DNA from: Candidatus Yanofskybacteria bacterium | Lineage (GTDB): Bacteria; Patescibacteriota; Minisyncoccia; 2-02-FULL-40-12; IGHO2-01-FULL-4-A | Reading direction: 5' to 3' | Length of the DNA stretch: 64,000 bases | Assembly: GCA_016181175.1 (NCBI GenBank) | Contig: JACOZV010000001.1 | Coordinates: forward strand, 75,778-139,777 | Shown: positions 34,613-60,716 of the stretch, one piece after another | How the letters are laid out: each line of letters begins with the position of its first letter | Position numbering within the stretch: position 1 is the stretch's first letter | Made by a program: the position numbers and the translations under genes | Notes under the pieces: generated by a model | The model's input: only the letters and a program-made list of their open reading frames with translations | What the model was told of the DNA's origin: nothing | Database searches by the model: none

Positions 34613-35151
34613 GGCCATAATCAAATATATGAATAAATTCCACAATAATTTCATAACAAAAAGCGGCTGAAGCCAAGTTCTTAATTTGCGTTTACAAGCA
34701 GCCGCGTAAATCGCGGATTTTTTATCAAAATTGAATATATTAGAGCCATTATTGGCTGTCGTCGGGCATCTCCTTACGGAGGTGCCCGACGGAAGCTAAC
34801 ACTAAACCGATTGAATAGATTGCAATTTAAAAAATAAATAGTTAGCGGGTATCCCGGTTAGAGCTTGCGATTGCCACAAGTGGCAATCCACCTCTAACGG
34901 GATTAAAAAATTGCATTTCTGCATTTAGAAATGAGTTCCAAAATGCAGAATAAGTAGATTGAATTCGATCTATCAATAGAGATCGAGGATTTAATCTTGT
35001 AAGGAATTATTAAGGGCGTATGGAGGATGCCTTGACACCAAAAGGCGACGAAGGACGTGGCGTGACGACGATATGCTTCGGGGAGCCGTCTAGCGGGCTT
35101 TGATCCGGAACATCTCAGTAGCCAGAGGAAAATAAAACAAACCCCGCACCT

Positions 35152-35273
35152 TTTGAGCACAAGATTTTATTTGGCATCCGCATTGTGATGCGTGGCTGAC
35201 GGATATTAATTATTTGTTGTTTGCGCACTACATTTCGGAATCTAATTGACACTAGTGCTTAAAAGGTGCGGGG
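35152..35273 (+). repeat. Hairpin insertion in the 23S 5' domain, flanked by 13-bp inverted repeat CCCCGCACCTTTT / AAAAGGTGCGGGG (family B)
   Basis: Inserted between GAGGAAAATAAAACAAA and AACATTTCCTAAGTAGCGGCGAGCGAA; same IR termini as 57160..57227 and 42283..42458. Confidence 0.65.
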
Positions 35274-35652
35274 AACATTTCCTAAGTAGCGGCGAGCGAA
35301 AGGGAAACAGTCTAAACTCTTGTTTATTAAGTTTACTTAGTGAGTGGGAGTGTTGTAGGAAGGATTTTTTTCTAAACACTGGACATCTGCATATACTCTT
35401 GTGCGGATATCCAGGAAATTAGGATTGAGTTACAAAGTTAGATGTTAGCTGAACGGTCCTGGAAAGGCCGACCAAAGAGGGTGATAGTCCCGTAAACCAA
35501 AACCTCTAATCTCAATCAACCGAGCACATAACTTTTAGGAGTTATGAGCTCGGTTGGAAAATCCTCTCCTGAGTACCCATGGAGCAGACTATCCGTGGCG
35601 AAGCCGGGCCTACTACGGTCCAAGACTAAATACTTTTGGTGATCGATAGTGA

Positions 35653-35686
<34 letters not shown>

Positions 35687-35799
35687 GGTTAGGGGAGTGA
35701 AATAGAACTGAAACCATATGCCTACAAAGAGCCGAAGCCCTTCCCGTCGCAAGACGGTCAGGGTGACGGTGTGCCTATTGAAGAATGATCCAACGAGTT

Positions 35800-36128
35800 T
35801 TTACAAGTGGTTTATCCAGCTTCACTTTTGGTTTATGATGACTTTATGTGGATAGTTTATATTATTCAGAACAATCTAACTGAAAAAATATATATTGGCT
35901 GTACAAATGATCTCAAGAAACGAGTCGAAAAGCATAACAGCCAAACAAATAAAGGTTATACAAGACGACTTATCGGTCAATGGATTTTGATATACGCGGA
36001 AGCTTATAGAAGCAAAGAAGATGCTTTTCGACGGGAGTCAAAACTCAAAGACCACGGTAGTTCTAAACATGAATTGAAGAAGAGAATCAGCAATTCATTG
36101 TTAAAACCAAAAGTGAGGCTGGATTAAG
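35800..36128 (+). mobile_element. Stem-bounded intervening sequence in the 23S helix-25 region carrying a GIY-YIG ORF
   Basis: 19-bp stem CCAGCTTCACTTTTGGTTT (35816-35834) / AAACCAAAAGTGAGGCTGG (36104-36122) enclosing the ORF; inserted between …GAATGATCCAACGAG and GGATAAGCCCGTATAGGG…GGAAACCGAGTG. Confidence 0.65.
35846..36127 (+). CDS. GIY-YIG nuclease-family protein (YhbQ/UPF0213-like) encoded inside the 23S IVS
   Basis: WIVYIIQNNLTEKIYIGCTNDLKKRVEKHN…YTRR…WILIYAEAYRSKEDAFRRESKLK is a GIY-YIG motif set; an alternative GTG start lies at 35807. Confidence 0.7.
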   Translation: MWIVYIIQNNLTEKIYIGCTNDLKKRVEKHNSQTNKGYTRRLIGQWILIYAEAYRSKEDAFRRESKLKDHGSSKHELKKRISNSLLKPKVRLD

Positions 36129-36582
36129 GATAAGCCCGTATAGGGTGCATCCGTAGGGAAACCGAGTGTTAAAAGCGCGACTTAATCGCTTGTAAAAGAC
36201 CCGAAGCCAGGTGAGCTACCCATGGCCAGGATGAAGTTTGTCGAAAGACAAATGGAGGTCCGAACTAGTTGATAGCGCAATATCATTGGATGAGCTGTGG
36301 GTCGGAGTGAAAAGCTTATCGAACCTGGTAATAGCTGGTTCTCCCCGAAATGCCTTTAGGGGCAGCGCCGGTGAGTAGTCGCGGGGGTAGAGCTCTGAAT
36401 GGTTTGCCGTGCCAGCAATGGTAGGCTTACCAAACAAACTACGAATACCGCGGTGTAATCGCCGGTAGTGAGACTGTGAGGGCAAAGCTTCATAGTCGCG
36501 ACGGGATTAGCCGTTTGACCACCGCTTAAGGTCCCTAAATCTATGCTAAGTGTTAAAGGAAGTCATTTTCCTTAGACAGGTA

Positions 36583-36624
<42 letters not shown>

Positions 36625-37305
36625 CAGCTTACTGCTCGAATTCTAATTTCGGTTAGACGAGGAAAGTGGCGCCGAAGATTCAACGGGGCTAAGCATAGTA
36701 CCGAATGCGTGGACCGTCCCGATTTATCGGGATGAGTGGTAGGGGAGCACTTCAAGCCGCTGCGAAGGTGTGTCGTGAGGCATGCTGGAGCGCTTGGAGG
36801 AGAGAATGTTGGAATGAGTAACCACAAGCGAGGTGAGAACCCTCGCCGCCGTAAGCCTAAGGTTTCCTCCGCAATGTCAATCACCGGAGGGTTAGGCGAC
36901 GCTAAGGATAACCGTGCCTACGGGCATGGGAAGCCGATGCTAAGCCGGTTAATATTCCGGCCCTTCCATATGTATTGATGGAGCGACGGAGGATATAAGC
37001 TGGAGCAGATTATTGGATTTCTGTTTTTGGATTCCAGGATTGTCGTTTGGAAAATCCGGCGACTGACTTTAATGTCAAAATACGAATTTGAAGAAATCAC
37101 GGGTAACCGTGGGATTCCAGTGAAGAGCCTTCCAAGAAAAACTTCTAAAATTATGCATATGGGAAACGTACTTAAAACCGACACAGGTGGGCTAGTGTAA
37201 GTGCACTAAGGCGAACGGGTGATTATTGGCTAAGGAACTCGGCAAAAAAGTGGCCGTACCTTCGGTATAAGGCCTACCTGACCGTGCCTCACTGCGTTCG
37301 GCACG

Positions 37306-37410
37306 AATTTTTAAATTTTTAATTTTATAATTTTAATAAATAATTTCTAATGTTTAAAAATTAAAAACATTAAGATTTATTTAAAAATTAAAAATTGGAA
37401 ATTAAAAATT
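37306..37410. repeat. AT-rich palindromic hairpin repeat (family A), full ORF-less copy inserted in a variable 23S helix near the helix-63 region
   Basis: AATTTTTAAATTTTTAATTTTATAATTTTAATAAATAATTTCTAATGTTTAAAAATTAAAAACATTAAGATTTATTTAAAAATTAAAAATTGGAAATTAAAAATT; arms are mutual reverse complements; central mini-hairpin TAATGTTT/AAACATTA; flanked by 23S exon sequence. Confidence 0.75.
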
Positions 37411-37632
37411 CTAACAAGCCGAGCATAGCGAGGCGCGGTTGGGTCGCAGCTAACGAACCCCTGGCGACTGTTTATCTAAAACACAACTCTGTGCTAAGCC
37501 GAAAGGCGCTGTATACAGGGTGACGCTTGTCCAGTGCTGGAACGTTAACGGTGGAGGTGGTATGCAGCAATGTGTATTGCCAACGCCCGAAGCGCCAGTG
37601 AACGACGGCGATAACTATAATCGTCCAAAGGT

Positions 37633-38949
37633 TTTGAGAATTTGTCAGATGGCAAGTTCTCAAAAGGACTTGGCCGATTGTAGTGAATTTATATTGATAA
37701 ACAAAAGTAGCTGCCTATCGCGTGACGAAAGTTTTACGCGATGTCTTAAAATATATTCGATCATATGCTGGAAAGTCTGAGTATCCACAACTACTATGGT
37801 ATGATGTTACCTTTGGTGATAAAATATATCTATGCCAAGTAAAAATGTTAGTGGTGCAGACGATCAGCAGGAAAGTCTGAAAATGATGGGTTGGATAACA
37901 GGTTTTGTTGATGGGGAAGGATGTTTTACTGTCAGTATATTCAAGAATTACAAAGCTCAACGCAAGCTCGGATGGCAAGTATTCCCTGAGTTTGTAGTTT
38001 CCCAAGGAGAGAAGAGCTTGAGCGTTCTCGAACTGATCAAGAACTACTTCAACTGTGGTTATATAATAAAAAATAAAAGGAACGATAACCACCACGAAGA
38101 TATGTTCAAATACTGTGTGAGATCTTTGTCGGATCTAGAAACCAAAATTGTGCCATTCTTTACCCAAAACAAACTCCTAACCGCAAAGCGAAGAGATTTT
38201 ATAATCTTTAAGGAAATCCTAAAAATGATGGGTCGCAAGGACCACCTTAACCTTAAAGGACTTAGAAAAATTGCCTCTCTAGCTTTGCAGATGAATCGTA
38301 AAAAAAGACCCAAGTTTTCAGAAATCCTCAGAGACTAAACGTCGAACCCGCTCAAATTTTTGGACTTAAATAAAAAAAACCTCAACTGAGGTTTCGATGA
38401 ATTTGCTATTAATAATCAATTATAGGAGCTTGTTCGTGCCGCTTATCTATACCTTTAAATCTACTGTCGGTACGGATTTTCCTAATGGTATTTCGTGGTA
38501 ATTCACATTGAATCAGCATAATATCATTGTTTCTGAGTTTAACATTAAATTCTACTATGCCATATTCTATAAAATATATAATAAGAGATGCTACCCAGCG
38601 TACATGAACACGAAGAGTTAATTTTTCCATGAATTTTCCACCTTTCTTTTGTGATTTAAAATGAACTTTGAAATGCAACACCAATAAACTAAATGTTTAC
38701 TGGTTTGCCCTACTCGCCCTGATTTGTAAAAGGATGAGGAAAATAAGGATAACCCTTTACTTTACTCGTCTTTTAGCTGATTTTTATTGTAAAATAAGGA
38801 CAAATCAGATGTTGCACTTCGGGGGTAAATGCGAGCGAAGAAACCCAGTGGTAAGTATAAATCAATTAAAATTTAGTGTCAATAGTCCAAAAATTTGAGC
38901 GGGAAGATATAGTCCGAACTGCATGGCGACATGCAGAGTAACATACTTA
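37633..38949 (+). mobile_element. Intron in 23S at the E. coli ~1917 site (CCAAAGGT | AGCGAAATTCC) carrying a LAGLIDADG homing-endonuclease gene
   Basis: Exon junction reconstitutes AAGGTAGCGAAATTCC; 1317-nt insert; internal 19-bp long-range pairing CCCGCTCAAATTTTTGGAC / GTCCAAAAATTTGAGCGGG; 3' motif GAACTGCATGGCGACATGCAGAG shared with the insert at 39499. Confidence 0.7.
37832..38338 (+). CDS. LAGLIDADG homing endonuclease (single-motif, I-CreI-like), intron-encoded
   Basis: 168 aa; MMGWITGFVDGEGCF LAGLIDADG motif. Confidence 0.8.
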   Translation: MPSKNVSGADDQQESLKMMGWITGFVDGEGCFTVSIFKNYKAQRKLGWQVFPEFVVSQGEKSLSVLELIKNYFNCGYIIKNKRNDNHHEDMFKYCVRSLSDLETKIVPFFTQNKLLTAKRRDFIIFKEILKMMGRKDHLNLKGLRKIASLALQMNRKKRPKFSEILRD

Positions 38950-39169
38950 AGCGAAATTCCTTGTGGGGTAAGTTCCCACGCGCATGAATAGCGGAACGAC
39001 TGGGGGACTGTCTCAGCCAATAGCCCGGTGAAAATGCAATGTCAGTAAACGAGTTTTTATGCGTAGTGTAGTGGCGAGCCTTTGAAGTCATGTTCTTGGA
39101 TGTGATGGAGGCGACAATGAAACAGCCATCTTAAAGACTTGTAATTCTAACTGGTGTAACCCTAGGAGG

Positions 39170-39441
39170 TAAAATATGTTTTCTGATAAAAAACCAATAG
39201 AATATTGGATGCAAGAACTAATGAATCTAAAACATGAATGTGATCTGATGACAGAAAGGATAAGGAGTACCAGAGCGAACATTGAATATCTAATAGATTC
39301 AATCAAAGACAGAAGTCCAAAAGGAGTTGACCCAGAAAAATGGAAAAAGTTTTTAGCAGAATGGAATTCGTTTCAAATTGAATATAGTAACTTCCAATTT
39401 TAGTTTAAGTCGCCCTATTTTTAGGCAAGTTTTATTTGCCT
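39170..39441 (+). mobile_element. Stem-bounded IVS in the 23S domain V (helix-79-equivalent) region with a 75-aa ORF preceded by a perfect SD
   Basis: 14-bp stem GTAACCCTAGGAGG / CTTCCTAGGGTTAC encloses the insert; AGGAGGTAAAATATG gives SD spacing of 6 nt. Confidence 0.6.
39176..39403 (+). CDS. Small helical hypothetical protein encoded in the 23S IVS
   Basis: 75 aa (MFSDKKPIEYWMQELMNLKHECDLMTERIRS…); strong SD; no recognised family. Confidence 0.45.
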   Translation: MFSDKKPIEYWMQELMNLKHECDLMTERIRSTRANIEYLIDSIKDRSPKGVDPEKWKKFLAEWNSFQIEYSNFQF

Positions 39442-39498
39442 CTTCCTAGGGTTACATCAAGACAGTGCCTGGTGGGTAGTTTAACTGGGGCTGTTGCC

Positions 39499-39995
39499 TT
39501 AACGCGGTATTCGTTACACCGCATGGGGCCTACTGAAAGTAATTTCAGTATGCAAATTCGACTATATGCTGGAACCCCCGCGCATATCTGAATACTCTAC
39601 TTAGTAGCTGAGCTACTAAGTAAGTGAAAATTTTGGATCGATGCGGACAATCAGCAGGGAAGTTCTTCAATTAAATTCAGGACCCCTCAACGACTGTACG
39701 TCGAGTGCCGCGAAGCGGCAATGATACAGTCTGAACTGCATGGCGACATGCAGAGCTGGGCAGAAATGACCCGGCCGCCTATAAAATTTGGTTTTTTAAG
39801 GCCATGTTTTATGGGAAGGGTTTAGCGAATAATGCCTTATAGCACCGTTGAAGCTGTGCGATTGCACGGTTTGCGAGCAGTATAATTTTTCACTGCGAGT
39901 AAAATCCACAGATTCAACGGAGCGTAGCAACCTCGCTGGGGTTGCAAGCGGTGATAGAAGGTATTATTCGCTAAACCTGCAAAGTAACACAATTG
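39499..39995 (+). other. ORF-less structured insertion (intron or IVS) in 23S between GGGGCTGTTGCC and CCTAAAGAGTAACGGAGG
   Basis: About 497 nt with no ORF of 60 aa or more; contains GTCTGAACTGCATGGCGACATGCAGAG, near-identical to the 3' motif of the 37633..38949 intron, and a 20-bp internal stem GGTTTAGCGAATAATGCCTT / AAGGTATTATTCGCTAAACC. Confidence 0.5.
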
Positions 39996-40250
39996 CCTAA
40001 AGAGTAACGGAGGCGTTCATTAAGGTCGGCTAGCTGCGGATGGAAATCGCAGCGATAGTGTAAAGGCAAAAGCCGGCTTAACTGCGAGACGGATGTGTCG
40101 AGCAGGTGCGAAAGCAGGACTTAGTGAACCGACCGTTGGTCGTAGGACCGCGGAAGATCATCAGACAAAAGCTACTCCGGGGATAACAGGCTGGTACTGC
40201 CCGAGCGTCCCTAGCGACGGCAGTGTTCGGCACCTCGATGTCGGCTCGGC

Positions 40251-40769
40251 TTTTAATCGACTTTTTAACTGTTTGAGCCCGAGGAAAAGACATCAAAATA
40301 TAAATCACGGCGCAATAATATAGGAATATATTATTGACTGCTAACTTATATCGGTAAAACCCATTCGGTAAACTCGGGGTAATACCGAGAGAAGTTATTT
40401 GTTCAAATTTTTGGAAAAATAAAAAAGACCCTATTGGGTCATGTAAAATATGGCAAATGGTAAGGTAATGGCTAAAACAAATTGAAAGCGACAGAGACCA
40501 TCAGTATAGATTTTTTTGAAAGATCCAAGGGCTATAAGAGAGTTAAAAATCCAGAAAATAAGCATTAAAACCAGAGATATTAGCAGTTGTTGGGAGTTCA
40601 TTATTGCCTCCTAAATTAAATATAATTGATTATTAAATTATTGTCAATACCCAATTAATTTGACTCCAAAAATTTGAACAAATAACACTCGTAGAGACTA
40701 AATGTTAGCCATCCAATCTGCCAATCAGTGGAGGATGAAGTTATGGTCCAATGCACATAGTAATATGTG
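40251..40769 (+). other. ORF-less insertion in 23S after CACCTCGATGTCGGCTCGGC (E. coli ~2510 region); boundaries unresolved
   Basis: About 500 nt without an ORF; internal long-range pairing TTGTTCAAATTTTTGGAAAAAT / GACTCCAAAAATTTGAACAA resembles the module in the 37633..38949 intron; exon resumes near GAAACATGCGTGAGACAGGTTGGTCC. Confidence 0.4.
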
Positions 40770-40840
40770 GAAACATGCGTGAGACAGGTTGGTCCTTATC
40801 TGGTGCGGGCGTTGAAGTTTGAGGGGGGTTGTCCCTAGTA

Positions 40841-41614
40841 AGAAATTGCTACTTCACGCAGTAATGCGTGATGACAACTCGGCTAATAACGGTGAAATCT
40901 TATTATTTTTGTGTTCGTTGATAACTACAATTGTCGCGGTCCGACAATTATAGTACAATTTACTTGAGGACCAGAAATAATTAAGACGATACCGTGGGAA
41001 GTCAATCTAAAATTGATTTAGCATATATTGCAGGTTTTCTTGATGGTGACGGAAGCTTGATGTTACAAATCAAGAGACGCAAAGATGGAACCAAAAAGTT
41101 TCGCTTTATGTCTACAATTTGTTTTTATCAGGATAGTAACCACGAAGAATTTCTGCATTGGATAAAAAATATTCTTGGAATTGGTTATTTGACTCAAAGA
41201 GATGATGGCATGAGTGAACTAAGAATTAATGGATTTAAACAAGTTAAAGATATAATAAAAAACTTATTGCCATTTATTAAATTCAAGAAAAATCAAGCCA
41301 ATGCTATTTATGAAGCAACTAGCATGATGAGCAGTAAGATTCTAAGCCGTTTAACCAAGCAGGAATTGTTAAAAATCGTAGATTTAATGCTTATAATTCA
41401 AAAGCATAATTATAAATCTAGAAGCAAGAAAACCAAAAAAGAACTCATTCAATTATTAGATTTGACCCCGTAACGACTTGTCGAGTTTAGCTCGACGGAT
41501 GATTAGCGATGAGATTGCATCAATGGTTAATCATAACATGCCGATTCCCTGAATCCGCTTTTTGCGGGAGGGAAAAGATATAGTCTACACTTATAGTGAT
41601 ATAAGATTTTGTGA
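40841..41614 (+). mobile_element. Intron in the 23S sarcin-ricin loop (CCCTAGTA | CGAGAGGACCGG) carrying a LAGLIDADG homing-endonuclease gene
   Basis: Flanking exons reconstitute CCTAGTACGAGAGGACCGG exactly; 774-nt insert. Confidence 0.7.
40994..41473 (+). CDS. LAGLIDADG homing endonuclease, intron-encoded
   Basis: 159 aa; LAYIAGFLDGDGSL LAGLIDADG motif. Confidence 0.8.
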   Translation: MGSQSKIDLAYIAGFLDGDGSLMLQIKRRKDGTKKFRFMSTICFYQDSNHEEFLHWIKNILGIGYLTQRDDGMSELRINGFKQVKDIIKNLLPFIKFKKNQANAIYEATSMMSSKILSRLTKQELLKIVDLMLIIQKHNYKSRSKKTKKELIQLLDLTP

Positions 41615-42282
41615 CGAGAGGACCGGGATGAACGAACCTCTGGTCTACCAATTGTTTTGCCAAAAGCAGCGTTGGGTAGCTATGTTCGGTTCCGATAAGC
41701 GCTGAAAGAGATTTGAGGCGAGGCGAAGCAAAAACAACGAGGCATGGCTTGTGCCATGTCAAGGAGTTTTTGTGAAGCCGCAGCTCAAATATATAAATTG
41801 CAGCAGAAATGATTATTAAGTCGGAGGCACAAAGATTCGTGAGAGATTATCACGTTGATAGGGCGCAGGTGTAAGCGCGGTAACGCGTTCAGCCGAGCGC
41901 TACTAATAAATCATCAATTCCTTACAAGATTAAGTCCTTATGACCTTCGCGCTTAAACTGCGGAGCCCCCAAAATCTAAGGGGCTGGCCGCAGTTAAGCC
42001 GCAAGGATTTGCCCAATTTCTTCGTTAAGCACTCCGGTGCTCCCTCGCCATACCTCTAGTATGGCTCGGTTCACTCCTCGTGCTTGCCTCGAACTTGGCC
42101 AAACGCGAAGGTCAAAAATGCAAAAACACCCCTTTAACTATAAAAACTAAAAACCATTTGCTTGGTGGTTATACCGGAAGTGTCCCACCCGATCCTCCCG
42201 CCCATGTACACATAGGCGGGATTGCGATTTGCAGTTGTGCTCGTTACACTGTGCGCAAGCAAATCGGTAACATTCAGACTTG

Positions 42283-42458
42283 CCCCGCACCAAAATTAAA
42301 AATTAAAGCCAGCAAGTTGGTGACTATACTGTGAGTGCTCCACCTGTTCCCATTCCGAACACAGAAGTGAAATCTCGCAAGGCCCATGATAGTACAGTGC
42401 TTAGCATTGTGCGAAAGTAGGTAGTCGCCAGCTTGCTGGTTTTAATTTTGGTGCGGGG
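42283..42458. repeat. Family-B inverted repeat (CCCCGCACCAAAATTAAAA … TTTTAATTTTGGTGCGGGG) enclosing the 5S gene as an extended processing-stem/hairpin
   Basis: Left arm 42283-42307, right arm 42440-42458, 19 bp perfectly complementary. Confidence 0.6.
42308..42439 (+). rRNA. rrf: 5S rRNA with a 16-bp extended terminal helix
   Basis: GGTGACTATACTGTGAGTGCTCCACCTGTTCCCATTCCGAACACAGAAGTGAAATCTCGCAAGGCCCATGATAGTACAGTGCTTAGCATTGTGCGAAAGTAGGTAGTCGCCAGC; ends GCCAGCAAGTTGG / CCAGCTTGCTGG pair. Confidence 0.8.
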
Positions 42459-42587
42459 ACTCGGTAGTGAAATCTTCCAGGGCCTATGATAGTATCGTGC
42501 TTAGCATGATACGAAAGTGGGTCACCGCCAGACAAATGGTTTTTAGTTTACTTTTATTTTAGTAGTGATCCAGCTATAATTAATCTA

Positions 42588-43367
42588 ATGAACGACTCTC
42601 AACGACTGCAAAAACAGATAATGGTTGCTATAATTTTCTTTTTGGTTGTGGGTGGTATTGGTTTCGGAATTTATCGTGGCGTTGCGCCAGTTTCTCCAAC
42701 CCCCACACCTAATCCGACAATTAACTTGGCACCGATTCGGGTTCTGGATTCTAAATTTTTGAATATTGAAAATAATGACTATGATTTTTTAGCTAAAGTG
42801 AACAATAGCAACACGGAATACGGTTCACCTAATGTTGAATATGAAATTAAATTTTATAATTATGCTGGACAACAGATTTCAAATAAAATCGGACGATTTT
42901 ACATTCTACCAGGGCAGACGAAATACATTATTGAGCCTTTGCTTAAATTTCAAACACCGATCAGTCGAGCTGATATTAAAATCACAAGCGTAGATTGGCA
43001 GAAACTTCAAACTCTAGCTACCGCGGGCGCTACTTTGCTAGTTAAAAATGTTTCGTATCTGCAGAATTCACAGGCTGGTGTTTTTGCAAAAGTAGGTGGG
43101 GAGATTTTAAATAATTCCGACTTAGATCTTAATACGATTGATGTTGTTGTTGTTGTTTTAGATGCAAGCCAAGAGCCGATTGCCATTAATAGAACAAACA
43201 TATTTACGTTCCTTGCCCGTACTACTAGAGGATTTGAAGTCCAATGGTTTACGCCGTTTATCGGGCAAATGAATCGCGTAGATGCCGAGGCTAATGCGAA
43301 TGTTTTTGAGAACTCAAACTTCTTGCGTACCTATGGCGGACAGGAAAGATTTAAGCAATTCTATTGA
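42588..43367 (+). CDS. Hypothetical membrane-anchored extracytoplasmic protein
   Basis: 259 aa; N-terminal TM helix VAIIFFLVVGGIGFGIY, PTPTPNPT linker, beta-rich remainder. Confidence 0.5.
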   Translation: MNDSQRLQKQIMVAIIFFLVVGGIGFGIYRGVAPVSPTPTPNPTINLAPIRVLDSKFLNIENNDYDFLAKVNNSNTEYGSPNVEYEIKFYNYAGQQISNKIGRFYILPGQTKYIIEPLLKFQTPISRADIKITSVDWQKLQTLATAGATLLVKNVSYLQNSQAGVFAKVGGEILNNSDLDLNTIDVVVVVLDASQEPIAINRTNIFTFLARTTRGFEVQWFTPFIGQMNRVDAEANANVFENSNFLRTYGGQERFKQFY

Positions 43368-56692: not shown

Positions 56693-56824
56693 ATCCCGAA
56701 CGAGACAGCCCTTGTCAACGGCATGGAAAGGTTGCGGCGGCTATCTAATTGGTGATTTATAAAGTTAATTTAAATAGACACGGAAATGATTTACTCAGAT
56801 AAAACATTTCCTGTCTCGTACGGG
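56693..56824 (+). promoter_or_regulatory. Leader of gene 56825: inverted partner ATCCCGAACGAGACAGC (56693-56709), hairpin GGAAATGATTTACTCAGATAAAACATTTCC, then CCTGTCTCGTACGGG-ATG
   Basis: Same module architecture as at rpoB, ssb and rplD. Confidence 0.5.
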
Positions 56825-57181
56825 ATGAATTTTAATCGATTAAAAGAATTAGTTGGTAAATTGGGCGGGCTTTTGGTGTTGGACGGTGATAAGCCTGAGT
56901 TGGTGGTATTGACATACAAAAAATATCAAGAAATTGAAACCGGAGAGGAAGTGGCCATTTCTAATCCTAATCGGAATGGAGCAGACGAAGGAAGTATTTT
57001 GAGCGGCGAAGGCGGCGAAGATGGTAGTGACGACGACAGAAAAACTCTTGATCAGTTAAACCAAGAGATACTTGCATTAAAAGAAGAGATAAGACAAAAA
57101 GAGGAGGCTGAATTGATTGGAAATGGACAAGTGACGGAACCGATAGCCGAAATTGTTGACCCCGCACCTTTTTTGGACTAG
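56825..57181 (+). CDS. Hypothetical protein with a Phd/YefM-antitoxin-like N-terminal fold and an acidic coiled-coil C-terminus
   Basis: MNFNRLKELVGKLGGLLVLDGDKPELVVLTYKKYQEIE resembles Phd/YefM; start set at the module ATG rather than the upstream in-frame extension MIYSDKTFPVSYG. Confidence 0.45.
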   Translation: MNFNRLKELVGKLGGLLVLDGDKPELVVLTYKKYQEIETGEEVAISNPNRNGADEGSILSGEGGEDGSDDDRKTLDQLNQEILALKEEIRQKEEAELIGNGQVTEPIAEIVDPAPFLD

Positions 57182-57227
57182 CGCTCCGCGCCAAAATTTA
57201 AAAAAGTTGTCCACAAAAGGTGCGGGG
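57160..57227 (+). repeat. Family-B hairpin (CCCCGCACCTTTTTT … AAAAGGTGCGGGG) overlapping the stop of the upstream gene and abutting the tuf promoter -35
   Basis: 13-bp inverted-repeat termini identical to the 23S insert at 35152..35273; interior begins TTGGACTAGCGC (compare TTGACACTAGTGC in the 23S copy). Confidence 0.6.
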
Positions 57228-59326: not shown

Positions 59327-59926
59327 ATGTCATTTATCCTTGGTAAAAAAATTGGAATGACCCAAATTTTTCAGGAAGATGGAACCGTAACTCCCGTAAC
59401 TTTGGTTGAAGCCGGTCCAGTTACTGTTACGCAGGTAAGGGTTAAAGACAAAGATGGCTACGAAGCGGTGCAGGTCGGTTACGGTAATGACAAAAAACTT
59501 AATAAACCCAAGGGCGGACACTTAAAAGATCTCAAACCGCTCAAAGTATTAAGGGAAACAAAAGTACTGAATGATAAAAAAAGAGGTGACGAAATAGATG
59601 TTTCCGCATTTGGTATTGGTGACAAAGTAAAGGTAAGCGGTTTCTCTAAGGCCAGAGGATTTCAGGGTGTGGTCAAGAGACACGGTTTCCATGGAATGCC
59701 TGCCAGTCATGGCCATCATCACGTTTTACGCCATGGCGGTTCCATCGGCCAACGTTTTCCCCAGCATACTCTCAAGGGTATGCGCATGGCCGGACGCATG
59801 GGCGGCAAGAGAATAACAACGAGAGGATTAAAAATTTTAAATATTGATAAAGAAAATAATCTTTTGGCAATAAAGGGAGCAATTCCCGGCCGCCGAGGAA
59901 CATTATTAGAAATAACAAAAATATGA
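59327..59926 (+). CDS. rplC: 50S ribosomal protein L3
   Basis: 199 aa; canonical L3 blocks. Confidence 0.95.
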   Translation: MSFILGKKIGMTQIFQEDGTVTPVTLVEAGPVTVTQVRVKDKDGYEAVQVGYGNDKKLNKPKGGHLKDLKPLKVLRETKVLNDKKRGDEIDVSAFGIGDKVKVSGFSKARGFQGVVKRHGFHGMPASHGHHHVLRHGGSIGQRFPQHTLKGMRMAGRMGGKRITTRGLKILNIDKENNLLAIKGAIPGRRGTLLEITKI

Positions 59927-60050
59927 ATCCCGTACGAGACAGCTAGGTCTAAAGTTAAAGGTAAAAATAATAAAATTAGCACTAACTGTTTTGGCGGGAT
60001 AACTTAAAAGATATGGATTAGGTTTATAACCTAATCCTGTCTCGTACGGG
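59927..60050 (+). promoter_or_regulatory. rplC-rplD intercistronic element: ATCCCGTACGAGACAGC … hairpin GGATTAGGTTTATAACCTAATCC plus CCTGTCTCGTACGGG-ATG(rplD)
   Basis: 17-bp inverted termini (59927-59943 / 60036-60050) flank a 92-nt spacer; the module abuts the rplD start. Confidence 0.55.
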
Positions 60051-60716
60051 ATGAAAATAGAATTATACAATCAAGCTGGTGAAGTTGTTGGTACGGTTGA
60101 TCTGTCCGATAAGGTTTTTGGTTTAACTATGAATGGGGAGTTGGTAAAGCAAGTTGTTGATGCGCAGGTAGCCAATTCAAGACAAGTGATTGCTCATACA
60201 AAAGACCGCAGTGAAGTGCGAGGTGGCGGTCGCAAGCCGTGGCGGCAAAAGGGAACAGGCCGAGCCAGGCATGCTTCTATCAGATCGCCGATTTGGAAGG
60301 GCGGGGGTGTTGCGTTCGGTCCCACCAAAGAAAGGAATTTCGAGAAAAAAATAAATAAAAAAATGAAACGCAGGGCATTGTTTATGGCTTTATCAAGCAA
60401 GGCCAAAGACAAAGCATTATTATTATTAGATGACCTTAAATTAGAAACTCCAAAAACCAAACTAGGAGCCAATGTAATCAAAACCTTATCTTCCAAGATG
60501 GAAGGATATCGGGCATCCAAGCAAAAGATGGATTCGATTTTATTGATAACTTCTGATCAAAATCAAACCATTGTCCGCACTTTTAATAATTTACCGTTTG
60601 TTGGCATATTACCAGCCAAAAGTTTGAACGTTAGAGATGTCTTGAGTAAGAAGTATCTGATTTTGTTACAAAATGCGGTGCCGGTAATTGAGAAAACATT
60701 CAGAATTTCTAATTAA
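60051..60716 (+). CDS. rplD: 50S ribosomal protein L4
   Basis: 221 aa; …RGGGRKPWRQKGTGRARHASIRSPIWKGGGVAFGP…. Confidence 0.95.
   Translation: MKIELYNQAGEVVGTVDLSDKVFGLTMNGELVKQVVDAQVANSRQVIAHTKDRSEVRGGGRKPWRQKGTGRARHASIRSPIWKGGGVAFGPTKERNFEKKINKKMKRRALFMALSSKAKDKALLLLDDLKLETPKTKLGANVIKTLSSKMEGYRASKQKMDSILLITSDQNQTIVRTFNNLPFVGILPAKSLNVRDVLSKKYLILLQNAVPVIEKTFRISN

Follow-up and report, generated by a model that had tools for sequence, protein, structure and literature searches.

A complete 5S rRNA gene inside a clamped hairpin in loop C of a second, split 5S rRNA gene of a Candidatus Yanofskybacteria genome

How does a bacterium come to carry one complete 5S rRNA gene within the interrupted sequence of another, and which of the two copies would it use? 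The question is raised by a locus in the window, the whole 64,000-nucleotide stretch of a Candidatus Yanofskybacteria metagenome-assembled genome (MAG) analysed here, in which a complete 5S lies inside a clamped hairpin that itself sits in loop C of a second, split 5S. DNA of this organism is present in the aquifer sequencing runs SRR12113383, SRR12113384 and SRR12113424. A first-pass annotation, made from the letters alone, had described an intact 5S flanked by partial 5S-like pieces and had offered two explanations, either a newer 5S brought in by a hairpin element that broke up an older 5S gene, or a decayed tandem duplication. RF00001 scans and inverted repeats confirmed that all three pieces are present, although their ends had been placed a few bases off (inner gene 42316-42433, outer pieces 42161-42195 and 42459-42535). 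In particular, the outer 5' piece does not reach 42210 but ends at 42195, and 42196-42270 is a separate double-hairpin insertion. The order at the locus is outer 5' part, complete inner gene, outer 3' part, made up of the following elements (evidence in brackets; L004 is a sister MAG):

42144..42160, + strand: 5' arm of the processing-type stem flanking the outer gene (repeat I2; paired in the MFE and centroid folds)
42161..42195, + strand: 5' part of the outer 5S, covering the 5' strands of helices I, II and III and loops A and B (RF00001 positions 1-36; profile columns 3-35; identical to the start of the L004 gene at 35/35 positions)
42196..42270, + strand: insertion 1, a 75-nt double hairpin in outer loop C (without counterpart in L004; both hairpins in the MFE fold)
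42271..42278, + strand: 8-nt remnant of outer loop C, CATTCAGA, between both insertions (profile columns 36-43)
42279..42315, + strand: left side of insertion 2, with a CTTG linker, the GC clamp CCCCGCACC and the long stem's 5' arm (inverted repeats)
42316..42433, + strand: inner copy of the 5S rRNA gene, complete, canonical and presumably the one in use (RF00001 positions 1-120)
42434..42458, + strand: right side of insertion 2, with the 3' arm of the stem and the GC clamp GGTGCGGGG (inverted repeats, fold, junction in three other assemblies)
42459..42535, + strand: 3' part of the outer 5S, from the helix III to the helix I 3' strands (RF00001 positions 44-120; L004 match)
42536..42549, + strand: 3' arm of the outer flanking stem, then a T-rich tail (repeat I2; MFE fold)

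The inner gene matched RF00001 over its full length with 82 bits (gathering score 38, E = 6e-18). It is enclosed by an inverted repeat, as had been noticed at first reading; the repeat is perfect over 19 bp (42283-42301 / 42440-42458), and the stem continues via a further repeat (42299-42326 / 42422-42449). The flanks of the gene form a 25-bp duplex (z = -8.7) that extends helix I as a precursor stem. The whole locus (42140-42555) adopts a single nested fold of -186 kcal/mol (z = -12.2), with 0 of 100 shuffles as good; both copies lie within this fold on the rRNA strand, and only the inner one is a contiguous canonical 5S. The earlier suggestion that the outer pieces pair like helix I held as well: helix I of the outer copy is paired at 7/7 positions, and the outer ends together with their flanks are complementary over 26 nt (42144-42169 / 42524-42549, 88%). 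Outer helices II, III and V are paired at 6/7, 7/8 and 8/8 positions, respectively. Insertion 1 comprises hp1 (42196-42221), the arms of which (42196-42207 / 42210-42221) are 92% complementary, and hp2 (about 42224-42266). A promoter and terminator scan of 41800-42800 gave counts no better than shuffles.

The first-pass annotation had proposed scoring each segment with RF00001, and the outcome differed with the way of scanning. A contiguous Rfam scan of 42050-42650 at E <= 10 returned the inner gene (82 bits) and no second RF00001 match; the other matches reported, MIR1862, sR44 and wcaG, were all chance. In scans begun at the junctions, in turn, both outer halves were recovered, with 42161-42196 matching RF00001 positions 1-36 (12.5 bits, E = 2, 3'-truncated) and 42459-42533 matching positions 44-120 (22.7 bits, E = 0.005, 5'-truncated). 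The null of the contiguous scan is therefore no refutation of an outer gene, and a plain cmsearch would falsely appear to refute the nesting because it reports the inner gene only. The same held in every nested relative tested, where the contiguous covariance-model scan likewise found the inner copy alone.

What the outer copy used to be is indicated by L004, the neighbouring protein of which is 93% identical and which carries the outer gene unbroken (RF00001, 79.7 bits). Once the insertions are removed, the outer halves of the window agree with the L004 gene at 115/120 positions, and the 3' part agrees at 94.7% over 75 nt. The two loci differ by exactly two clean insertions, of 75 and 180 nt, and by five substitutions. 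One of these affects the loop C motif CCGAAC, which reads CAGAAC in the window (CATTCAGA versus the canonical CATTCCGA of L004). This C-to-A change falls in column 41, a position invariant in inner copies, and outer loop C, split by both insertions, is not intact. Inner and outer copies of the window are 76% identical and differ in their helix I and helix II sequences. These comparisons support the view that the outer copy represents a formerly intact resident gene and, with the insertion bounded by clamps, they favour the first of the two initial explanations, an old 5S interrupted by a hairpin element with a newer one.

The second explanation, a decayed tandem duplication of the 5S gene, has become improbable in the extreme. 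It could account for two 5S-like 3' regions that are 75% identical at an offset of exactly 100 nt, less than one 5S gene (42459-42549 versus inner 42359-42449), and for those relatives in which a full 5S is followed by a 3' fragment. A duplication, however, would not yield a 5' part, a full gene and a 3' part in this order, nor the clean boundaries at which removal of both insertions nearly exactly restores the L004 gene. The identity of only 76% between inner and outer copies speaks against it too, as does the fact that the outer parts are complementary to each other and not to the inner gene (helix II pairs at 6/7 positions between the outer parts, but at 3/7 and 5/7 in the cross pairings).

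We consider it highly improbable, too, that the arrangement arose as a chimera during metagenome assembly or reflects a 5S gene with a self-splicing intron. Contigs of related organisms do often break within the 5S gene, which the nested repeats help to explain, and the 23S gene of the window is full of introns. Yet the junction running from the inner 5S through the clamp to the outer 3' part recurs unchanged in three Logan contigs assembled independently from other runs (L040, L041, L042) and is thus common to four assemblies; since these contigs carry the same sequence, the locus is not an assembly artefact, and k-mer collapse cannot produce complementary clamps and stems around an inner gene. 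As to an intron, no group I or group II match was obtained at E <= 10 in 42050-42650 (an Intron_gpI match lies at 39472-39753, in the 23S gene), and the insert contains neither an ORF nor an intron core. Our reading of the locus is that the inner gene is probably the working 5S and the outer one a former resident, disrupted and by now reduced to spacer in the precursor.

Judging from sequence, the nested design recurs across many bacteria of the CPR, or Patescibacteria. A metagenome pattern scan returned 50 loci, 40 of them of CPR type; the scan required the clamp and the inner GAAGTGAAA motif, so that part of the sample is pattern-selected. The ten matches dropped were ordinary non-CPR 5S genes with GC-rich terminators (L053, L059, L062, L065, L067, L078, L083, L087, L091, L092). 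Both outer halves surround a clamped inner 5S in about 20 distinct lineages, with the inner gene at one of two main positions, after CCGAA (loop C) or after AGAAG (3' side of loop B), and with insertion sites after profile columns 35, 43/44 and 52. Three GTDB loci are nested (L014, L026, L034), and four possess a trailing 3' relic only (L007, L010, L020, L027). An unbiased family sample of 32 loci comprised 24 single genes, 4 nested loci and 4 with a trailing relic only. The 5S interruption of L029 consists of Ns, a scaffold gap, and is no insertion.

The stem around the inner gene is maintained across loci: it is present in 36 of them, with a median length of 29 bp and z = -8.5, at a sequence identity between loci of only 58%. 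Single-copy 5S genes of relatives have stems comparable to those of the inner gene. Insertion 1 is homologous to hairpins at the same outer 5S site in L046/L056. No donor of the window's cassette was found among the 5S genes compared, the nearest inner-like ones being 86-89% identical (L001, L010, L097, L007).

Slow evolution, in turn, is a property of the inner copies only. Across five independent close pairs, the outer core diverged by 8.4% (39/462), three times faster than the inner copies (2.6%, 14/542; Fisher's test, p = 5e-5) and much like the filler (6.1%, 59/971; p = 0.12 for outer versus filler). Helix II is paired in 66% of outer cells versus 83% of inner ones, and its 3' strand is missing from the outer copies of L055 and L086. 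Further losses comprise the outer 5' half in L063/L076 and everything except the clamp in L045 and L080; apparent 5' parts of L063/L076 and of L043 proved to be chance chains of short matches and were counted as missing. Hairpins that disrupt loops, as many as seven in one outer copy, are confined to copies with an intact 5S beside them and were seen in 0/24 single-copy genes. Moreover, helix IV/V is identical between both copies of one genome in at least six loci, and the 3' strand of outer helix II finds a better pairing partner in the inner 5' strand than in the outer one in L048, L068, L058 and L054. Constraint is apparently relaxed on the outer copy, and gene conversion apparently runs from inner to outer.

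Two further comparisons were left out of this argument. As the scoring profile was built from inner copies, its scores favour them, and inner copies scoring above outer ones were not taken as evidence. At the 53 columns invariant in inner copies, outers showed a mean of 2.3 deviations versus 1.6 in independent single-copy genes (p = 0.08), and because they are not significantly worse than single-copy genes, this test was not used as evidence of decay either.

By their sequences, the outer copies are not obviously junk. Helix I is paired in 91% of outer cells, most invariant nucleotides are kept, and a strong helix I plus flank duplex is retained in 17/25 outers. Among related outers, nine double changes are compensatory, of which the comparison of L060 with L088 yields four, and all-pairs distances are equal for outer and inner copies (0.219 and 0.224). 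Together with the intact outer helices of the window, these features speak for an alternative in which both copies work. The outer halves, paired via helices I-III, would then constitute a split or expanded 5S, or a 5S-like RNA binding uL5/uL18; the clamped stem would be excised like a 23S intervening sequence or kept as an expansion segment, and one locus would give two 5S species. A hairpin with the same clamp does reside inside a presumably functional 23S gene. In addition, expanded 5S rRNAs are known from other phyla, for which loop C 34-37 and the 52-53 bulge were judged the least obstructed sites in the ribosome (PMC7812874), and since the insertion sites lie close to these, an expanded or split outer 5S is sterically conceivable.

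We nevertheless regard two working copies as unlikely. The outer copies of close pairs diverge no more slowly than filler, many have helix II degraded or deleted, and the 5' half or the entire outer copy is gone in several lineages. Outer loop C of the window bears the C-to-A change in CCGAAC plus an insert of 255 nt, none of the 24 single-copy 5S genes of relatives tolerates such loop insertions, and the sister genome manages with a plain gene. Helix I, the conserved columns, the compensatory changes and the equal distances can all be explained by recurrent invasion of functional genes combined with gene conversion; equally, the retained features would follow from weak selection for the outer fold.

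The GC-rich inverted repeat that bounds insertion 2 (CCCCGCACC...GGTGCGGGG) also bounds cargo-less hairpins elsewhere in the window:

35142..35273, + strand: related hairpin of 132 nt that shares the clamp (CCCCGCACCTTTT...AAAAGGTGCGGGG) and is inserted within the 23S 5' domain (from sequence)
57160..57227, + strand: related hairpin of 68 nt that shares the clamp and lies where an ORF ends, TTGA on both flanks (from sequence)

The clamp is a terminal inverted repeat shared by several copies (at 35142, 42283 and 57160 in the window), and further cargo-less copies are located at L055:134, L057:9875 and L066:6955. Short flanking direct repeats were found in a few places (TTGA at 57160, ATGAA at 59929 and, separating the two tandem elements of L054, CTTG); the cassette of the window is flanked by none. 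One could hence picture the cassette as a target-specific, mobile, MITE-like hairpin with a captured 5S, which brings its own replacement for an essential single-copy gene and moves by active transposition or homing instead of passive recombination, so that 5S genes are replaced serially, in Russian-doll fashion. Close relatives differ in whether they have the cassette, and its boundaries are clean; diverse outer types have been entered, at three or more different sites; and some of the cargo-less hairpins with the same clamp, in this and other genomes, have 4-5 bp direct repeats. The outer copy of L090 keeps its own 5' clamp, which points to a former cassette that was invaded in turn, and in the outer copy of L054 the 5' part and the distal 3' end with flank share their type with the intact L007 gene.

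Mobility of this kind appears rather unlikely to us all the same. All of the roughly 30 cassettes occupy the 5S position of the rRNA operon and none lies elsewhere, for which reason allele exchange by homologous recombination fits better than transposition. A conserved mobile unit is not apparent, as inner genes and stems vary widely (58% flank identity), and no transposase or endonuclease appears to be linked to the cassette. Finally, the cassette pattern had 0 matches in viral contigs, and the direct repeats rest on very few cases.

If the inner copy is the working 5S and the outer copy precursor spacer, the following course of events may be envisaged. The outer gene would be the single-copy 5S resident in this lineage, the last gene of a 23S-5S operon, with its own flanking stem kept, and its loop C would have taken two clean insertions, the 75-nt double hairpin and the 180-nt cassette, the latter composed of a GC-clamped hairpin, a complete second 5S and a processing-type stem of its own of about 25-34 bp. 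The operon transcript would fold as a 5S inside a 5S, and an RNase III-type, double-strand-specific RNase would cut the long inner stem to release a pre-5S and, from it, the ribosomal 5S, a step modelled on the action of RNase III at bacterial pre-rRNA stems and 23S intervening sequences. Both outer halves and the hairpins would be thrown away as precursor spacer; with its halves discarded, the outer copy would be a recently disabled gene that has handed its function to the cargo copy. Recombination with a different 5S allele, for which the conserved 5S core would supply the homology arms, may have brought the block into the window lineage or removed it from that of the sister genome. The same process would have been repeated across Patescibacteria, with the invaded copy then decaying through more hairpins, 3'-domain gene conversion from the inner gene, loss of helix II and finally loss of the 5' half, until trailing 5S relics are left as the end point.

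Integrative elements in tRNA and tmRNA genes span kilobases, bring an integrase gene with them and renew their target in its 3' part only. As in these systems, insertion into an essential RNA gene would be tolerated here since the gene is restored, and an old fragment is left beside it; unlike them, the cassette has no apparent enzyme linked to it, supplies a whole gene and splits the old one around the newcomer. Nested RNA genes are represented by twintrons and by the box C/D sRNA in the archaeal pre-tRNA-Trp intron, in which the host RNA is re-spliced and two kinds of RNA arise. Here, too, a structured RNA would be released from the intervening sequence of another RNA, but host and guest belong to one and the same gene type, and there is no sign of a religation mechanism. 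Intervening sequences of bacterial 23S genes, known in 23S and 16S genes, are excised by RNase III without religation. With these, and with short ORF-less insertions of CPR 16S and 23S genes (PMC11270868), the locus has in common an extended hairpin in an rRNA loop, sporadic occurrence among close relatives, probable horizontal spread and small genomes with single rRNA copies, as well as the same-clamp hairpin in the window's 23S gene. Intervening sequences, however, carry no rRNA gene and leave a functional host rRNA, whereas the host 5S in the window is probably not functional.

Expansion segments and insertion-bearing pseudogenes of prokaryotic 5S rRNA have been described by Stepanov and Fox (RNA 2021; PMC7812874). 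The known insertions span 13-109 nt and stem from Clostridia, Halanaerobiales, Thermoanaerobacterales, Alteromonadales and Halobacteria, including one of 108-109 nt in Halococcus morrhuae; expanded copies coexist with normal ones, remnants share insertions, and spread by homologous recombination has been proposed (PMC7812874). Like these segments, the insertions here are self-folding and helical, lie in loop B, helix III or loop C and, in the predicted fold, leave the core foldable. Unlike them, the window insertion (180 + 75 nt) brings a canonical 5S and a processing stem in genomes with basically one rRNA copy, it is apparently the interrupted gene that loses out, and, in contrast to cases with an expanded 5S as the sole type, a canonical 5S is found within the insertion; none of the described segments was reported from CPR bacteria or contains a 5S gene (PMC7812874). 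What appears to be new is an insertion in a 5S gene that carries a complete 5S of its own. In a survey of 645 CPR 5S genes, Tsurumaki et al. reported no insertion of at least 100 bp (J Bacteriol 2024; PMC11270868), probably because contiguous covariance-model annotation sees the inner gene only.

Together, these findings indicate that the 5S loci of CPR bacteria are as dynamic as their intron-laden 16S and 23S genes. The layout would represent one route by which an essential RNA gene present as a single copy can be broken up and exchanged while its function is kept. The relics left behind, among them trailing 3' fragments and mosaic outers, are datable and could serve to trace recombination between uncultured lineages. 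The locus also raises the question of whether a bacterial 5S can work when split or greatly expanded at loop C. It is conceivable, if doubtful, that the cassette is a self-compensating invader driving serial 5S replacement across Patescibacteria, or that the locus makes two 5S species. In the former case, the spare 5S would let the cassette alone settle in loop C or loop B of a 5S; in the latter, a canonical and a split or expanded 5S would make for a heterogeneous ribosome population in organisms to which only one 5S has been ascribed.

The nested 5S locus lies at the end of a 23S-5S operon, next to a downstream protein gene (42588-43367) whose product is 100% identical to MBI2062730.1 from a Candidatus Yanofskybacteria MAG and has homologues from Yanofskybacteria, Paceibacterota and Patescibacteria MAGs. 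Rfam yielded a single contiguous 5S match in the locus, the inner gene (42316-42433, 82 bits), which is flanked by a perfect 19-bp inverted repeat (42283-42301 / 42440-42458) continuing into helix I. Scans begun at the junctions recovered truncated RF00001 matches to both halves of the surrounding, outer gene, namely model positions 1-36 at 42161-42196 (12.5 bits) and 44-120 at 42459-42533 (22.7 bits, E=0.005). The stretch 42459-42549 is 75% identical to inner positions 42359-42449 at an offset of exactly 100 nt, which falls short of a full gene length. The inner-clamp-outer junction, the clamp being the GC-rich inverted repeat at the ends of the hairpin stem, recurs in three independent assemblies built from further sequencing runs. 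Together, these results bear out the layout proposed in the first-pass annotation, a stem-enclosed intact 5S between a 5' and a 3' part of another. The proposed pairing of the outer ends was likewise found (42144-42169 / 42524-42549, flanks included), and the entire 42140-42555 region is predicted to fold with one 5S inside another (-186 kcal/mol, z = -12.2).

The sister MAG L004 (GCA_964585975.1), whose neighbouring protein is 93% identical to that of the window, carries an uninterrupted 5S in the same place (79.7 bits over the full model). Profile alignment of the outer gene set the boundaries of two inserted blocks:

42196-42270: first inserted block, a 75-nt double hairpin
42279-42458: second inserted block, 180 nt, comprising a CTTG linker, clamp, inner 5S and clamp

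Between them remain 8 nt of outer loop C (CATTCAGA; L004 counterpart, CATTCCGA). With both blocks removed, the outer gene matches the L004 5S at 115 of 120 positions, which, given the uninterrupted sister gene, argues that the outer copy would be the resident 5S of the lineage and the inner one would have arrived with the insertion. This comparison supports the earlier suggestion of an old 5S interrupted by a hairpin element carrying another, although its polarity can be read two ways, as a gain here or, alternatively, as clean loss of the insertion in the sister lineage. The competing suggestion, a decayed tandem duplication, is ruled out because inner and outer copies are identical at only 90 of 118 positions and differ in their helix I and helix II sequences.

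For a broader view, 35 species-representative family loci were fetched via the downstream protein, blind to 5S content, and more were added by protein look-up. The family sample contained 24 loci with a plain single 5S, four nested loci (the window, L014, L026 and L034) and four in which a full 5S is followed by a 5'-truncated relic (L007, L010, L020 and L027). Complementarily, metagenomes were searched for an inner 5S motif with a clamp on either side; of the 50 loci matched, ten were rejected as unrelated terminator matches. In about 20 distinct lineages, profile alignment tolerating long insertions placed both outer halves around an inner gene, with nested-locus scores of 85-149 versus noise of about 30-42. 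The inner gene mostly sits after CCGAA in loop C; in L057, L060, L069, L073, L088 and L090 it instead follows AGAAG on the loop B 3' side, and in L026 and L058 it lies earlier within loop C. Rfam called the inner copy alone in every nested locus tested.

Contigs of the family very often break off within the 5S locus or at its border (L004:1, L040:1, L041:1, L042:1, L025:1, L030:1), probably because of conserved or repeated 5S segments, so that draft MAGs under-represent nested loci. Directly downstream of some 5S loci (L034:660-720; L081, 3' of the outer 5S; L036:1-35) lies an inverted 5S 3' end, GGCGGATGCCTACTTTCGCC, the reverse complement of GGCGAAAGTAGGCATCCGCC, apparently a further kind of 5S relic. 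Separately, the sole intact 5S of L020 (1829-2035; Rfam 50.2 bits over part) has a ~105-nt insertion at the helix IV tip/loop D that looks like a true 5S expansion segment in a single-copy gene.

Earlier work describes 5S rRNAs expanded by insertions of 13-109 nt, and remnants of 5S genes bearing such insertions, in Firmicutes, Alteromonadales and Halobacteria (PMC7812874); none of these cases contains a 5S gene or comes from the ultra-small CPR bacteria (Patescibacteria), whereas the window insert carries a 5S. A comprehensive CPR survey states that its 5S genes are all free of insertions of 100 bp or longer (PMC11270868). Hairpins of the intervening-sequence (IVS) type are known in 23S genes and suspected in CPR 16S and 23S genes. 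A literature search turned up no description of one 5S gene lying inside another. The arrangement builds on known kinds of element, 5S insertions and rRNA intervening sequences. Both its presence here and its recurrence elsewhere are well supported, and its mechanism is only partly resolved.

The clamp, CCCCGCACC...GGTGCGGGG, is a repeat family that bounds hairpins beyond the 5S cassette, including three in the window:

35142-35273: clamp hairpin of 132 nt within the 23S 5' domain, CCCCGCACCTTTT...AAAAGGTGCGGGG, between AAAACAAA and AACATTTCCTAAGTAGCGGCGAGCG
57160-57227: clamp hairpin of 68 nt at the end of ORF 56786-57181, TTGA at each side
59929-60050: related clamp hairpin between ORFs 59327-59926 and 60051-60716, ATGAA at each side

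The first looks like an IVS-type insertion; the other two are possible MITE-like elements whose flanking repeats would be target-site duplications. Cargo-less clamp copies occur in other genomes, hairpins within outer genes have the same clamps, and the 75-nt double hairpin of the window is homologous to same-site hairpins in L046 and L056, whose outer and inner types differ. Two tandem clamp elements occupy outer loop C of L054 (520-660), each preceded by CTTG and only the second carrying an inner 5S, which suggests insertion of one hairpin element beside another with a 4-bp duplication. Another double hairpin, TCCCGAT...GGATCCTCGATTG...CAATCGGGA, present in the L014 outer 5S (675-745) and an L018 intergenic spacer (455-515), appears to be a second small palindromic repeat family of these genomes. 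Since every cassette found occupies the 5S position of an operon and the cassette pattern had no match in viral contigs, spread through homologous recombination between 5S alleles would be favoured over free transposition.

The neighbouring 23S gene starts near 35000 and, owing to several insertions, spans ~6.9 kb (35000-41925). It contains:

39472-39753: group I intron (Rfam 67.6 bits)
37832-38338 and 40994-41473: LAGLIDADG_1 endonuclease ORFs

The 64-kb window lacks a 16S gene, and the operon therefore appears to consist of 23S and 5S alone. A ~200-nt stretch of the 23S-5S spacer (41930-42130) contains several hairpins, matches no Rfam family and shares the motif GCCTCGAACTTGGCCAAACGCGAAGG with distant relatives (L006:386-620, L010:200-440, L021:1200-1420), which makes this stretch a candidate for a conserved processing element or small RNA.

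As to which copy works, sequence evidence favours the inner one. Across five independent pairs of related nested loci, 2.6% of core positions differed in inner and 8.4% in outer genes, with 6.1% in non-core filler (Fisher's test on close pairs: outer versus inner, p = 5e-5; outer versus filler, p = 0.12), and helix II was paired in 83% of inner versus 66% of outer cells. Some outers have lost the helix II 3' strand (L055, L086) or the 5' half (L063/L076), or are reduced to the clamp alone (L045, L080). In L026 and L070, hairpins have accumulated in outer loops A, B, C and E, as many as seven per copy; none of the 24 single-copy genes has an insertion of this kind. At least six loci have the same helix IV/V sequence in both copies, and the outer helix II 3' strand of L048, L068, L058 and L054 complements the inner 5' strand more closely than the outer one, making inner-to-outer gene conversion evident at the sequence level. 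The stem around the inner gene (median 29 bp, z = -8.5) persists despite 58% sequence identity between loci, as a processing stem would.

Counting against an inner-only reading, the outer copy does not appear to be plain junk. Its helix I was paired in 91% of cells, most outers keep the flanking stem, and related outers show nine compensatory double changes; deviations at conserved nucleotides averaged 2.3, versus 1.6 in independent single-copy genes (p = 0.08). Over all pairs, distances were also equal (outer, 0.219; inner, 0.224). Such facts may reflect weak selection for the fold of the outer gene, or an outer 5S that functions in split or expanded form, and the insertion sites lie close to where an expanded 5S rRNA is judged to meet the least obstruction (PMC7812874). 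A copy evolving three times faster could not have kept distances this similar through long vertical descent, and we therefore infer that nested loci would arise repeatedly out of functional resident genes, as the window/L004 and L054/L007 pairs suggest. Mosaic outers in L054 and L086 and an L090 outer retaining its own clamp are consistent with such turnover, in which nested loci may also be refreshed through recombination and gene conversion.
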